From Planctomycetota bacterium (GTDB lineage Bacteria; Planctomycetota; UBA1135; GCA-002686595): a stretch of 64,000 bases of DNA. A model generated the notes under the pieces. It worked only from the letters and a program-made list of their open reading frames with translations. It had not been told where the DNA came from and searched no databases. Within the stretch, counting starts at the first letter, position 1. Every line of letters begins with the position of its first letter. This document shows, in pieces, positions 52,009 through 54,078 of this stretch. The stretch is from positions 11,983 to 75,982 of the forward strand of contig JADYYP010000002.1 in assembly GCA_020853575.1 (NCBI GenBank), given 5' to 3'. The position numbers and the translations under genes were made by a program.

Positions 52009-54078
52009 ATGAACCTGCGCCGACCGCGCCGCGACGATGCCCGTTGGGCCGCGCATGCGCGCCATGACCCCATGACTACCGAAGCCACGACGCACTCCAT
52101 TCGTTACCAGACGCCCGAGACACCCGACGGCGTCATTCGCAAGGTCGAGTTCGCGCCCAACGGCAGCGCGGCGGTGAAGGTCGAGATCGAATTCAAGGTC
52201 AGCCGCGAGTTCAAGGCCCGCTGCGAAGGCTCGGCGAAGAGCGTGGCGTTCGCGGCGCGCAGCCGCATCGCGCGCTTGGGCATCGACGTCGAGCCCACCA
52301 GCGAGATCCACTTCGAGAACGGCCGCGCGATGCTCGCGGCCAAGCTCAGCCCCAACGTCAAGGAGTACGGCATCGACCGTTTCCTCGACTGCCTGATCGT
52401 GCCCGGTCTCAAGCTCGGGCGCTTGGTCTTGGTGCGCGAGGAGAACCAGCTCAGCCCCGAGGAGATCTACAGCTCGCTCGAGCGCAACGAGTTCCAGTTG
52501 CCCAGCGGCTTCTCGATCGACGCCGAGGGCTCGTTCACGATCCAGACGCACAAGCTGCGCTACGTGCTGACCAAGAAGCTCTCGCCCGAGGACGCGCTGG
52601 CGATCCTCACCCAGGACGGCGGCAAGAGCATCCTGAATCGCATCCAGATCCCCAAGCCGATCGAGAACCTGGTGATCCCGCCGGGCCACGGGGTGATCAC
52701 CTCGTGCTCGATGTTCCTGCACAAGCACTACGTGGTGATCAATCCCGATGCGGGCGCCCTCGGACGACACCTCAACGCGATCGTGCTCGATCCGGTGTCG
52801 ACACGCGGCACGCGCGTGTTCCTCGAGATCACCAACAGCTCCGATCGCCAGATCGTCAACCCCTTCGTCAAGGCCAAGATCTACACCGCCGACGAGAAGA
52901 CCTCGGCTACACGCTTCTTCCCGGCGGTCAAGGTCGAGGAGCACCGCGCGGCGCGCGAGGAAGACGGTCTGCCGTCGTACGAGTCGCTCTCGGCCTACTT
53001 CGGCGAGCACCTGCCGGACAACGAGTCGAAGAGCTACCAGAACCGTCCGTTGATCGTGGCCGAGAACTGGCGCGCGATCGCGGGCCACAAGTTGCCGATC
53101 CTGGTCTCGACGCGTCCCGCGACCGCGGCCCGCAGCCAGGCCAGCTTGCGCTCGACGCTCGATTACTCGCACGTCGGCATGACTTCAGACAGCTTCGCCA
53201 CGCGCCTGCTCGACCAGGTGCCCGAGGGCAAGCACGCCACGCTGCTCCTGACCTACTTCCCCAACCTGATCGAGCACGTCGCGATCTGCAACGCGATCCT
53301 CCAGAAGCGCGTGGAGACCGTGGTGTTCCGGCGCGCGTCCTTCGAGCACGGCCAGTTCTTCTCCGCCAACGACCACACGCGGCTCGCCGACTACGAGGCG
53401 CTGGGCGCGAAGGTCGTGTGGTGCAACGACGACCGCCGACACCTCGCGCTGCACGCCTTCCGCGGCTTGCGCGGCTATTTCGTCGAGCCGCACGAGATCC
53501 AGCGCTTCAAGAACTCGCTGGTGCTCGCGGTCTACGGCTCGGCCGAGAAGCTCTCGGAGCCCGACGTCGCCGGACTGCAGGAGTTCCTGGCGCAGCTGAA
53601 GCAACTCTTCGGGGGCCAGATCGCGATCCTGACCGGCGGCGGTCCGGGCGCGATGCAACAGGCCACCGACAGCGCGCTCGAGCAGGGCCTGCTCGTCGGC
53701 GCGAATTACATCGAGACCATCGACCAAGCGACCAACAAGGCCGCGCACTTCTACCAGTGTTTCCAAGATCGCAATCGCCACAATCGCCAGCGCTGGTTCG
53801 ACATCGCCAGCTTCGTGGTCTTCTGCGTCGGCGGCTTGGGCACGCTCGAAGAGGTCGGCTTGACATTGACCGACATGAAGTTGGGCATGGTCGAGCGCGG
53901 TCCGGTGACGTTCTTCGGCAAGTACAAGGACGACGTCTACTGGACGCACCTGCAGGCGCAACTCGCGCGCATGGTGCAAGCCGGCCGGGCACCGGCGTGG
54001 ATCAACGAGAACATCCTGTTCACCGGCGACGCCTCGCGCATCACCAGCTTCTACAAGAAGGTCCTCGGGCTGGGCTGA
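52009..54078 (+). CDS. fusion protein: unassigned N-terminal region + dCTP-deaminase/dUTPase-fold segment + unassigned middle region + C-terminal LOG/TIGR00730 (PpnN-like) Rossmann domain
   Basis: ORF 51940..54078. The start is ambiguous (ATG 52009 with a weak GAG upstream, or ATG 52072). The Dcd-like signature LDPVSTRGTRVFLEITNSSDRQIVNPFVKAKIY lies at about 52795-52884. The LOG motifs are LAVYGSA, ILTGGGPGAMQQA (53626-53655), FQDRNRHNRQRWF and GGLGTLEE (53830-53853). GC3 is high, like the host genes. Confidence 0.75.
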   Translation: MNLRRPRRDDARWAAHARHDPMTTEATTHSIRYQTPETPDGVIRKVEFAPNGSAAVKVEIEFKVSREFKARCEGSAKSVAFAARSRIARLGIDVEPTSEIHFENGRAMLAAKLSPNVKEYGIDRFLDCLIVPGLKLGRLVLVREENQLSPEEIYSSLERNEFQLPSGFSIDAEGSFTIQTHKLRYVLTKKLSPEDALAILTQDGGKSILNRIQIPKPIENLVIPPGHGVITSCSMFLHKHYVVINPDAGALGRHLNAIVLDPVSTRGTRVFLEITNSSDRQIVNPFVKAKIYTADEKTSATRFFPAVKVEEHRAAREEDGLPSYESLSAYFGEHLPDNESKSYQNRPLIVAENWRAIAGHKLPILVSTRPATAARSQASLRSTLDYSHVGMTSDSFATRLLDQVPEGKHATLLLTYFPNLIEHVAICNAILQKRVETVVFRRASFEHGQFFSANDHTRLADYEALGAKVVWCNDDRRHLALHAFRGLRGYFVEPHEIQRFKNSLVLAVYGSAEKLSEPDVAGLQEFLAQLKQLFGGQIAILTGGGPGAMQQATDSALEQGLLVGANYIETIDQATNKAAHFYQCFQDRNRHNRQRWFDIASFVVFCVGGLGTLEEVGLTLTDMKLGMVERGPVTFFGKYKDDVYWTHLQAQLARMVQAGRAPAWINENILFTGDASRITSFYKKVLGLG

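Follow-up and report, generated by a model that had tools for sequence, protein, structure and literature searches.

A single reading frame in a planctomycete genome has been proposed to join a Dcd/dUTPase-type barrel to a LOG nucleosidase. This raises the question of whether both modules really stand in one polypeptide, what occupies the remainder of the chain and what such a protein might do. The gene lies within a stretch of 64,000 nucleotides that was analysed as a whole and is called the window here. The reading frame is genuine: its GC3 (0.90) and GC2 (0.46), in a window of 69% GC, are typical of coding sequence, and an identical 689-residue product has also been predicted elsewhere by a gene caller. 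Two other starts are possible, an ATG at 52072 (668 residues) and a TTG at 51940 (712 residues); family conservation starts near residue 33 of the 689-residue form. Residues are numbered according to the 668-residue form, which begins at ATG 52072, unless the 689-residue form is named. The features discussed below are collected in Table 1.

Table 1. Features of the four-module gene, with positions in the window and the evidence on which each assignment is based.
Feature	Position	Strand	Evidence or remark
Whole open reading frame	52009-54078	+	689 residues from ATG 52009; stop codon TGA at 54076-54078
D1, residues 9-125, apparent reduced Dcd/dUTPase-like beta-barrel with phosphate-side motifs only	52096-52446	+	hhalign and order of secondary structure
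Motif II equivalent RSRIARLG, R63-G70	52258-52281	+	hhalign, column for column with E. coli Dcd R110-S111-S112-L-A-R115-L-G117
G116-R117, in a strand aligned with the last Dcd core strand (P151-G152...G156)	52417-52422	+	hhalign
D2, residues 126-278, complete Dcd-like domain without the Ser-Ser-x-x-Arg loop	52447-52905	+	hhalign, Foldseek
Helix-loop-helix insert of D2, KKLSPEDALAILTQDGGKSILNRIQ	52573-52647	+	resembles a single TAL-effector repeat
Motif III and Dcd catalytic strand of D2, HLNAIVLDPVSTRGTRVFLEITN	52768-52836	+	hhalign alignment to Dcd
Linker, residues 279-375, partly disordered and variable; two helices and short strands	52906-53196	+	pLDDT, conservation
Middle alpha/beta domain, residues ~376-482, tentative cytidine-deaminase/APOBEC-like fold without zinc motifs	53197-53517	+	Foldseek
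Polar cluster of the middle domain	53257-53382	+	conservation; position from DSSP secondary structure
LOG (PF03641), Rossmann-like nucleotide 5'-monophosphate N-glycosidase domain, residues 483-668	53518-54075	+	Pfam, Foldseek
GGGPGAM glycine loop	53635-53655	+	invariant; aligned to tgggpgam of 5zi9 and 9us2
RHNRQR	53776-53793	+	R572 aligns with the LOG catalytic Arg (CgLOG Arg99); 'vrk' in 5zi9
GGLGTLEE (PGGxGTxxE motif)	53830-53853	+	E594 corresponds to the catalytic Glu (CgLOG Glu122)

The protein belongs to a widespread family. More than 220 full-length homologues were found at 42-90% identity, all of them carrying PF03641, and conservation over the full length extends at 31-90% identity through Planctomycetota, Verrucomicrobiota (Opitutia) and Chromatiaceae, where the family is present in more than 190 species. 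In databases, its members bear no label other than "LOG family protein" or "AMP nucleosidase". Scans of the whole protein against Pfam, NCBIfam and PADLOC detected no domain besides LOG. As far as these standard models go, the initial annotation was right to leave about 400 residues unassigned, but most of them can now be assigned by profile and structure comparison. The fusion was not one that the initial annotation recognised; no Pfam or NCBIfam model covers the four modules, and literature searches for the D1-D2-middle-LOG arrangement found nothing. When an N-terminal alignment profile was used to look for other architectures, all matches were fragments from this family, one of them on an error-prone long-read contig.

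At the C-terminus, PF03641 was matched with 41 bits (cutoff 27, E 2.7e-10) over residues 549-662 of the 689-residue form. Foldseek aligned the same module with the LOG structures 9us2, 5wq3, 1wek and 5zi9, with E-values of 1e-10 to 1e-9 and TMt, the TM-score normalised to target length, of 0.62-0.74. TIGR00730 scored below its curated cutoff (34.2 against 96.35 bits). The LOG motifs proposed earlier map onto the active site of the fold, with R572 and E594 aligned with Arg99 and Glu122, the catalytic residues of CgLOG (PMC4979012); the basic stretch, said to precede the glycine motifs, actually lies between the two. R569, R572, Q573 and E594 are invariant, and the first Pro of PGGxGTxxE is Val here and Val or Cys in the family. 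By alignment, the LOG module is intact with all catalytic residues present, and it is predicted to be active. These 186 C-terminal residues share with LOG, type-II LOG and Neisseria YgdH the fold, the GGGxGxM and (P)GGxGTxEE motifs and the catalytic Arg and Glu. However, Met96 and Lys100 of the cytokinin prenyl pocket are replaced by Arg569 and Gln573, and the N-terminal extension of 480 residues is found in no described LOG.

The nature of this extension was addressed with AF2 models (pLDDT 86 and 90; pTM 0.83 for the full length). With the full-length model, the 50 best Foldseek matches in the PDB were swamped by LOG structures, and a construct devoid of LOG (residues 1-483) was modelled separately. 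All eight PDB matches of this construct with an E-value of 0.001 or less are dCTP deaminases (2qlp at 1e-4; 1xs4, 2v9x and 2j4q from E. coli). The following matches are mostly dCTP deaminases as well (3km3, 1pkh, 4dhk), and trimeric dUTPases come after them; the top Dcd matches together span E-values of 1e-4 to 3e-2 and TMt of 0.5-0.63. Thus, a Dcd/dUTPase-type barrel is present, as initially claimed. The Dcd and Dcd:dUTPase enzymes (E. coli 1XS4, M. tuberculosis 2QLP, M. jannaschii 1PKH) match the N-terminal region best in structure, and this region can be divided into a domain aligning over the Dcd core (D1) and another aligning over the whole Dcd length (D2).

This division was obtained with hhalign. 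Residues 32-124 of D1 aligned with Dcd 85-164 at a probability of 89.6% (P=1.9e-6), the controls with reversed profiles or other domains giving P=0.03-0.6. Residues 126-286 aligned with Dcd 2-173 at P=8.9e-5, with a probability of only 60%. The Dcd profile used was shallow (Neff 1.9): a search with E. coli Dcd yielded only matches of at least 85% identity, and a viral scan added 4 sequences. D1 appears to be a dUTPase-like barrel on the basis of hhalign and of the matching order of its secondary structures, the fold-search output being without query ranges. The roughly 230 N-terminal residues previously described as unknown would consist of D1 and the N-terminal half of D2, according to hhalign. 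Conventional searches were blind to both domains. The Pfam DCD/dUTPase models (PF22769/PF06559) did not match, PF22769 reaching an E-value of 0.15 in 1 of 34 members, and a profile HMM of residues 1-300 had 0 matches among PDB sequences. Moreover, hhalign detected no similarity between D1 and D2 themselves, a comparison that was also used as a negative control.

The catalytic residues of Dcd are distributed over the two domains. In D1, R63, S64, R68 and G70 correspond, column for column, to R110, S111, R115 and G117 of Dcd. All four are kept in 78 of 79 species, and S64 and G70 are invariant in the 135 aligned family members (135/135), the most distant ones included. Verrucomicrobiota have S or T at position 65, which gives the canonical RSS. 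G116-R117, invariant in 78/79 species, may, judging from its alignment, bind phosphate in the manner of motif IV; perhaps D19 of D1 is motif I-like and R117 motif IV-like. In D2, H233, A236, D240, P241, E252 and N255 correspond to H121, A124, D128, P129, E138 and N141 of Dcd. The first five are invariant in all 79 species from three phyla, and N255 is kept in 78 of them; the Glu of the LE-x-x-N strand, reported earlier as kept, is indeed in place. The initial annotation had considered the Ser-Ser-x-x-Arg loop as replaced, and had suggested that the module binds a nucleotide rather than deaminating it. The loop is absent from D2 but present in D1, as R63-S64-R65-x-A67-R68-L69-G70, and this suggestion has lost its basis.

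No single domain carries the full Dcd set: D2 has E252 without SSxxR, and D1 has R-S-R-x-A-R-L-G without the Asp or Glu. Mutagenesis of E. coli Dcd ties the Ser, the Arg and the Dcd-specific Glu to catalysis. As judged from these alignments, D1 and D2 are two diverged tandem copies of the dCTP-deaminase/dUTPase barrel, with the Dcd catalytic set split between them. The protein has the Ser and Arg of the RSSxxRLG loop, the motif III Asp and the Dcd-specific Glu, but spread over two tandem, mutually unrecognisable domains, whereas Dcd repeats them in each subunit of its trimer. The protein also differs from Dcd in that the C-terminal lid is not recognisable, the Pfam DCD/dUTPase family is undetected and two further domains are fused.

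D2 also contains a helix-loop-helix insert in which G184, L188 and Q192 are conserved. TAL-effector structures were returned by phmmer for this segment (residues ~168-192) and were rejected, their scores being the sum of many sub-threshold repeats, each stretch with an E-value above 100. The likeness is probably due to chance or convergence.

Trimeric dUTPases bring motif III of one chain together with motifs I, II and IV of its neighbour. D1 keeps only the share of one trimer subunit (motif II) and D2 only that of the adjacent one (Asp240 and Glu252), and the two domains would pack as a pseudo-dimer, rebuilding one composite Dcd-type site. Such a site is favoured over a module limited to binding because the Dcd catalytic set is split between the tandem halves. 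A precedent exists in the monomeric dUTPases of herpesviruses, which consist of duplicated domains with complementary motif loss and a single site (PMC8961515). Like the EBV BLLF3 type, the present protein has two dUTPase-fold domains with complementary motifs in one chain. However, the order of motifs is III-I-II-IV-V in the viral enzymes, whereas the II-type half comes first and the III-type half second here; moreover, the present protein has the Dcd-type Glu and lacks motif V. Herpesvirus two-domain dUTPases were also matched in BFVD, a library of viral protein structures, with E-values of 2e-3 to 2e-2 over ~300 aligned columns, but the superposition was poor (rmsd of 10-20 Å). Because the protein is bacterial, its tandem looks like a duplication independent of the herpesvirus one.

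Downstream of D2, no conserved segment resembling a lid follows residue 278. The linker has pLDDT values below 50 at residues 278-298 and 354-364 and is poorly conserved; its short strands may form the opening strands of the middle domain. The stretch between D2 and LOG, about 190 residues long, had been left without assignment, but its C-terminal ~105 residues give weak, consistent matches to the deaminase/APOBEC fold and contain a conserved polar cluster. With LOG removed, the best matches were APOBEC3H (E 0.017), PBCV-1 bi-DCD (0.018) and S. mutans dCMP deaminase (0.019, TMt 0.51), and the deaminase-fold matches as a whole were weak (E 0.017-0.08, probability 0.85-0.98, TMt 0.37-0.51). Against the full model, dCMP deaminases in BFVD reached E-values of 4e-5 to 1e-3. 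No similarity was seen at the sequence level: a profile of residues 296-482 gave one match among PDB sequences (E 0.49), which was rejected, hhalign of the middle domain against LOG, D2 and Dcd found none, and Pfam scans, member by member, of both regions without a domain match returned only noise. The models tentatively point to a cytidine-deaminase/APOBEC-like fold.

Enzymes of this fold carry HxE and PCxxC at the N-termini of the corresponding helices. These zinc motifs are absent here: FPNLIEH and SANDH stand at the corresponding helix starts, and there is no Cys pair. Compared with the zinc-dependent cytidine and dCMP deaminases and APOBEC (S. mutans 2HVW, PBCV-1 bi-DCD 7FH4), which residues ~376-482 tentatively resemble in fold, HxE and PCxxC are replaced by E401-H402, H426, S431 and H435. 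The cluster comprises FPNLIEH (P397, E401, H402), at the N-terminus of helix 399-410, and RRASFEHG..S..DH.R (R420, S423, H426, S431, H435, R437), before and at the N-terminus of helix 432-443. Its residues are conserved across three phyla, and FPNLxEH, FRRASFEHGxFLSARDH and FRGLRGYF rank with the best-conserved stretches of the protein. The domain would either hold a ligand site or serve as a second hydrolytic site of an unconventional kind. One could imagine that it performs the main chemistry together with LOG, NMP base deamination being followed by glycosidic cleavage, with the barrels as a scaffold or oligomerisation platform. This would agree with the strong conservation of the segment and with the location of its conserved residues at helix N-termini used by deaminase-fold active sites. 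We consider it improbable, given the weak fold assignment (E ~0.02, TMt 0.37-0.51), the lack of zinc-ligand motifs and the replacement of E425, D434 and D440 in Verrucomicrobiota; it would also leave the invariance of the Dcd catalytic residues unexplained.

The main rival interpretation is that of a regulated nucleosidase, in which LOG alone is catalytic and the Dcd-like tandem, perhaps with the deaminase-fold domain, has degenerated into an allosteric sensor. The sensor would bind a (d)NTP or another nucleotide and gate or oligomerise LOG, as is known for PAG1/PAG2 or for dTTP at the Dcd site. PpnN (E. coli YgdH), a (p)ppGpp-regulated multidomain protein found among the fold matches, has indeed a LOG-like nucleosidase core flanked by the regulatory domains PAG1 (DUF4478) and PAG2 (DUF3412) (PMC6717881), and by analogy the extra domains could control access to the LOG site. 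Several other features fit this interpretation. Nothing equivalent to the Dcd lid or to dUTPase motif V can be recognised, a loss that could do away with triphosphate chemistry, and the Pfam models of the catalytic families fail. Moreover, Asp240 and the middle-domain residues are lost in a distant clade that still has RS..G, the Glu and LOG, as would be expected of accessory, evolvable N-terminal modules; because of this clade, the modules are not universally co-required. On the other hand, the Ser, the Arg, the Dcd-specific Glu and the motif III Asp are invariant across three phyla and down to 31% identity, a constraint that exceeds what binding alone usually needs, and the middle domain has an active-site-like cluster. 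In contrast to PpnN, Pfam finds no PAG1 or PAG2 here, and the accessory modules are enzyme-derived folds that retain catalytic residues. We regard the regulated nucleosidase as a possibility on the unlikely side.

The genomic context was examined for partners of the gene. Among 80 genome loci and 4 contigs, no conserved neighbour was common to different phyla; upstream flagellar and GNAT (N-acetyltransferase) genes are shared by close relatives only. The surrounding genes are housekeeping ones (flagellar, bipA/pyk, zapD/yacG), and no defence or mobile-element gene was seen around the gene at the loci examined. The gene is stand-alone, without operon partners. The association of a Dcd-like module with a nucleotide-cleaving one recalls nucleotide-depletion defence (bioRxiv 10.1101/2021.04.26.441389), and the protein might be an anti-phage effector destroying dCTP pools on infection, like defence-type dCTP deaminases. 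PADLOC matched 0 families, however, and the distribution of the family is broad and follows lineages. Given this result and the genomic context, the defence reading was rejected as highly improbable.

Altogether, these analyses argue, with a probability that we put at about 85%, for a vertically inherited, stand-alone nucleotide-processing enzyme made of four modules: D1, D2, a deaminase-like middle domain and LOG. The analyses show the folds, tentatively so for the middle domain, as well as the distribution of the motifs, the conservation and the absence of operon partners. How the modules might cooperate is a more tentative matter; the contact between the D1 and D2 half-sites, the substrates and the coupling between modules are what we infer. 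The composite site would bind a cytosine or uracil (deoxy)nucleoside triphosphate, and would deaminate it and/or remove pyrophosphate, like bifunctional Dcd:dUTPases, to give (d)UMP. LOG would then cleave the N-glycosidic bond of (d)UMP, releasing the free base and (deoxy)ribose-5-phosphate. The two steps can be linked because Dcd:dUTPase makes dUMP and the substrates of LOG and PpnN are nucleoside 5'-monophosphates. This putative coupling of a composite Dcd-type site to LOG, for (d)CTP/(d)UTP degradation in one polypeptide, has in our estimation slightly less than an even chance of being correct. Its fullest version, in which a bacterial, independently evolved counterpart of herpesvirus dUTPase with a single intramolecular site is combined with a new His-based variant of the deaminase fold and with LOG to convert (d)CTP/(d)UTP into base and sugar phosphate, is rather unlikely.

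For a family known to databases by its LOG domain, the recognition of three further nucleotide-enzyme folds makes cytosine and uracil (deoxy)nucleotides the more relevant substrates to assay, ahead of cytokinins or AMP. A recent review described active-site partitioning after duplication as exclusive to herpesviruses. If the split site is real, this would be a second, independent case in the dUTPase superfamily and the first for the Dcd branch. The middle domain, a deaminase-like fold devoid of zinc motifs, may exemplify a new way for that fold to catalyse a reaction or bind a ligand. Finally, a fused line leading from triphosphate to free base would, if true, be a new element of dNTP/NTP pool control, and would constitute an undescribed route of pyrimidine-nucleotide degradation or pool control in the PVC superphylum (Planctomycetota, Verrucomicrobiota and relatives) and in purple sulfur bacteria.

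The LOG-fusion ORF shows GC contents of 0.90 at codon position 3 and 0.46 at position 2, which is the coding signature of this window (65-72% GC). Three overlapping ORFs were rejected as genes, being Arg/Ala/Pro-rich by-products of high GC. The 689-aa product, which begins at the ATG chosen in the initial annotation, is also called, identical, on a metagenome contig (L092). Family conservation starts around residue 33 of this form and homologues are mostly 650 to 670 aa long; thus, the start is uncertain by 21 codons. Residue numbers below refer to the 668-aa form.

Features in and around the LOG-fusion gene. 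Positions are those of the window, except where another contig is named.
Feature	Position	Strand	Remarks
Flagellar block	44594-50453; 1-6429 on L002, the contig of a 73%-identical relative	+	flgI, rod-binding/flgJ-like, flgN-like, flgK, flgL
104-aa ORF	50458-50772	+	weak FliE-like match
GNAT acetyltransferase, 366 aa	50769-51869	+	Acetyltransf_9/1/7
LOG-fusion ORF	TGA stop 54076-54078	+	starts: TTG 51940 (712 aa), ATG 52009 (689 aa), ATG 52072 (668 aa, M1 of the numbering used)
Insert in second barrel	52573-52647	+	helix-loop-helix, LSPEDALAILTQDGGKSILNRIQ
Rejected ORF, 513 aa	51631-53172	-	
Rejected ORF, 308 aa	53185-54111	-	
Rejected ORF, 895 aa	52704-55391	+	
385-aa ORF	54234-55391	+	155 bp downstream of the LOG-fusion gene; no Pfam family; Pro-rich C-terminus
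EamA transporter	55424-56335		
Sulfatase	56319-58079	-	fused to C-terminal TPR repeats
SAM-dependent methyltransferase	58164-59159	-	Methyltransf_31/11/25; overlaps the small ORF; ArsM-like at a guess
Small ORF	59044-59469	-	presumably an ArsR-type regulator

The sole Pfam match of the protein is PF03641 (LOG, "possible lysine decarboxylase"), covering the C-terminal 120-190 residues with a score of 41 bits (cutoff 27). The sole NCBIfam match, TIGR00730, falls under its cutoff, and a PADLOC scan gave no match. The initial annotation had left about 400 residues without assignment, which is correct as far as these sequence libraries go, and neither Pfam nor NCBIfam has a named family for this architecture. 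The full-length AlphaFold model (pLDDT 86, pTM 0.83) matched type-II LOGs, Neisseria YgdH and the (p)ppGpp-regulated nucleosidase PpnN, with E down to 1e-10 and TM around 0.7 on the target. In the alignment, GGGPGAM corresponds to the LOG glycine loop, R572 to the catalytic Arg and E593-E594 of GGLGTLEE to the Glu of PGGxGTxxE (for the roles of the Arg and Glu in the LOG active site, see PMC4979012). All of these are invariant in 79 species from three phyla. The LOG motifs therefore map onto active-site residues, as had been proposed, and the LOG domain (residues 483-668) looks catalytically competent. The prenyl-pocket residues Met96 and Lys100 of CgLOG (cytokinin) are replaced by Arg569 and Gln573, so that the pocket does not suggest a cytokinin substrate.

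The N-terminal region was barely visible to sequence models: Pfam on 34 members yielded one match to PF22769 (E 0.15), and a profile of residues 1-300 found nothing among PDB sequences. A second model, comprising residues 1-483 without LOG (pLDDT 90), was searched with Foldseek. All eight PDB matches with E ≤ 0.001 were dCTP deaminases (Dcd), including M. tuberculosis Dcd:dUTPase (2qlp; E 1e-4, TM 0.62) and E. coli Dcd (1xs4, 2v9x, 2j4q). These were followed by Anaplasma 3km3, M. jannaschii 1pkh and 1ogh, and Burkholderia 4dhk (E 3e-3 to 5e-2), with trimeric dUTPases interleaved. Since sequence models were blind to this likeness, sub-profiles were compared with a Dcd profile by hhalign. The first module, D1 (residues 9-125), aligned over residues 32-124 with Dcd 85-164 (probability 89.6%, P=1.9e-6), and the second, D2 (residues 126-278), aligned over residues 126-286 with Dcd 2-173 (probability 59.6%, P=8.9e-5), against P=0.03-0.6 for the controls (reversed profiles, middle domain and LOG domain). 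In both models, the strands and helices predicted for D1 come in the same order as in the Dcd core, each with its counterpart. From the alignments and models, the N-terminal 280 residues are predicted to hold two Dcd/dUTPase-type barrels in tandem. The dUTPase-like barrel postulated in the initial annotation is thus present, with dCTP deaminases as its best PDB matches, but the stretch recognised there was no more than the C-terminal half of the second barrel. The D2 insert listed in the table resembles one TAL-effector repeat (LTPEQVVAIASHDGGKQALETVQ); none of its TAL-effector PDB matches is individually significant, and its DGK loop is kept across the family.

The catalytic residues of Dcd are divided between the two barrels. 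The alignments match motif for motif. In D1, R63-S64-R65-I-A67-R68-L69-G70 corresponds to R110-S111-S112-L-A114-R115-L116-G117 of E. coli Dcd, and P111-G112...G116 to P151-G152...G156. In D2, H233, A236, D240-P241, L251-E252 and N255 correspond to H121, A124, D128-P129, L137-E138 and N141. The Ser-Ser-x-x-Arg loop, which had been taken as replaced by AGALGRHL in D2, is therefore found in D1 (R63-G70), where no other feature of the N-terminal region is as well conserved. All 135 aligned family members, the most distant included, have S64 and G70; R63, S64, R68 and G70 are retained in 78 of 79 species, the exception being a gap in what is probably a truncated ORF. Verrucomicrobial orthologues, among them those of Opitutia (31-35% identity), carry R-S-S or R-S-T, the canonical motif II, and those of Planctomycetota and Chromatiaceae R-S-R. 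The motif III Asp and the Dcd Glu are lost from D1 and invariantly kept in D2 (79 species). In D1, D19-G20 and G116-R117 are near-invariant (78/79 species) and could be motif I-like and motif IV-like, respectively.

Trimeric dUTPases bring together motifs I, II and IV from one chain and motif III from the adjacent one, and the monomeric dUTPases of herpesviruses consist of duplicated domains that have lost complementary motifs, an arrangement described as restricted to these viruses (PMC8961515). D1 and D2 follow the same partition logic, with the opposite motif order. Two-domain herpesvirus dUTPases are among the matches in the viral structure library BFVD; they align over about 300 columns, with poor rmsd. 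From complementarity and conservation, we infer that the two half-sites would be in contact.

Residues 279-375 are variable and partly disordered. They precede a confidently modelled beta-alpha-beta-alpha-beta-beta-beta-alpha unit (residues 376-482), hereafter the middle domain, with strongly conserved segments (FPNLxEH, FRRASFEHGxFLSARDHGRLADYE, FRGLRGYF) and no relatives found by any sequence method. Foldseek searches with the LOG-less model returned APOBEC3H (E 0.017), PBCV-1 bi-DCD (E 0.018), S. mutans dCMP deaminase (E 0.019, TM 0.51) and also APOBEC3G, 3C and 3F; the full model matched dCMP deaminases in BFVD at E 4e-5 to 1e-3. These targets are alpha/beta proteins and therefore cannot be matching the all-beta barrels. 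P397, E401, H402, R420, S423, H426, S431, H435, R437, W450 and H461 are kept in all three phyla, and the conserved residues lie close together at the N-terminal ends of helices 399-410 and 432-443. In the deaminase fold, these helix N-termini carry HxE and PCxxC. Both zinc motifs are absent from the middle domain, which sets it apart from the zinc deaminases. Opitutia orthologues show E425T, D434A, D440T, R464K and R467H, with E401, H402, H426, S431 and H435 kept. The models tentatively suggest a deaminase-like fold whose site would be unconventional and perhaps His-based.

More than 220 full-length homologues were found, every one with PF03641 alone and named at best "LOG family protein" or "AMP nucleosidase". 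In a one-genome-per-species scan, at least 192 species carry the family, including Planctomycetota, Chromatiaceae (Thiorhodococcus, Thiocystis, Thiocapsa, Thiodictyon), many Opitutia and single MAGs of other groups. Searching 1.84 billion representatives with the N-terminal 483 residues gave 96 proteins; Pfam placed a LOG domain at the end of nine of the ten most distant ones scanned (20-27% identity), and no other architecture was seen among these relatives. A LOG-less architecture was considered for members of 340-400 aa (P0128, probably P0129 and P0130) and rejected, as these look like gene fragments; P0128 lies on a low-coverage ENA long-read contig (ctg319855_6x_l, L093) with many short ORFs around. 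Literature searches found no paper describing the Dcd-like tandem, middle domain and LOG together. Every fold in the protein is already known. The combination is new, as are the partitioning of Dcd catalytic residues over two tandem barrels and the putative deaminase-fold domain devoid of zinc motifs.

Neighbouring ORFs were compared among the 29 most diverse of 80 loci, a set made up of every Planctomycetota and Chromatiaceae locus and four more; no ORF family recurred in at least two loci of each of two groups. The window and the 73%-identical relative have flgH-I-J-N-K-L, a small ORF and the GNAT gene upstream in common and differ downstream; the flagellar order and GNAT gene are not kept in other phyla. 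The GNAT gene ends about 140-200 bp upstream on the same strand and is adjacent in close relatives only, so a functional partnership is unlikely. The 385-aa ORF is also called beside the gene on L092 and is absent downstream in the 73% relative. In Marichromatium, the gene follows pilus genes and precedes zapD and yacG; in another planctomycete, it lies between a HEAT-repeat gene and bipA/pyk. In the absence of common neighbours across groups, the gene is stand-alone, largely lineage-following and outside any defence island.

By analogy with PpnN, the N-terminal modules might instead be allosteric sensors of the LOG domain; this is the main rival reading. The Dcd lid and motif V are indeed missing, and a distant clade of the same architecture (P0180, P0189, P0199, P0201, P0202, P0208; 600-650 aa, 20-25% identity) retains the RS..G motif, the Glu and LOG yet loses Asp240 (LDP becomes VSPHS or VYPHS) and the middle-domain polar cluster. 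In that clade, the N-terminal modules may have taken on another role. That the Dcd Ser, Arg, Asp and Glu stay invariant while overall identity falls to 31% speaks for chemistry rather than binding alone. A composite Dcd-type site formed by D1 and D2 and fused to a LOG N-glycosidase is the best-supported reading. The substrate of such a site would be a (deoxy)nucleoside triphosphate of cytosine or uracil, and its monophosphate product would belong to the class of substrates that the fused LOG N-glycosidase cleaves. The middle domain would either serve as a second site of hydrolysis or bind a ligand.
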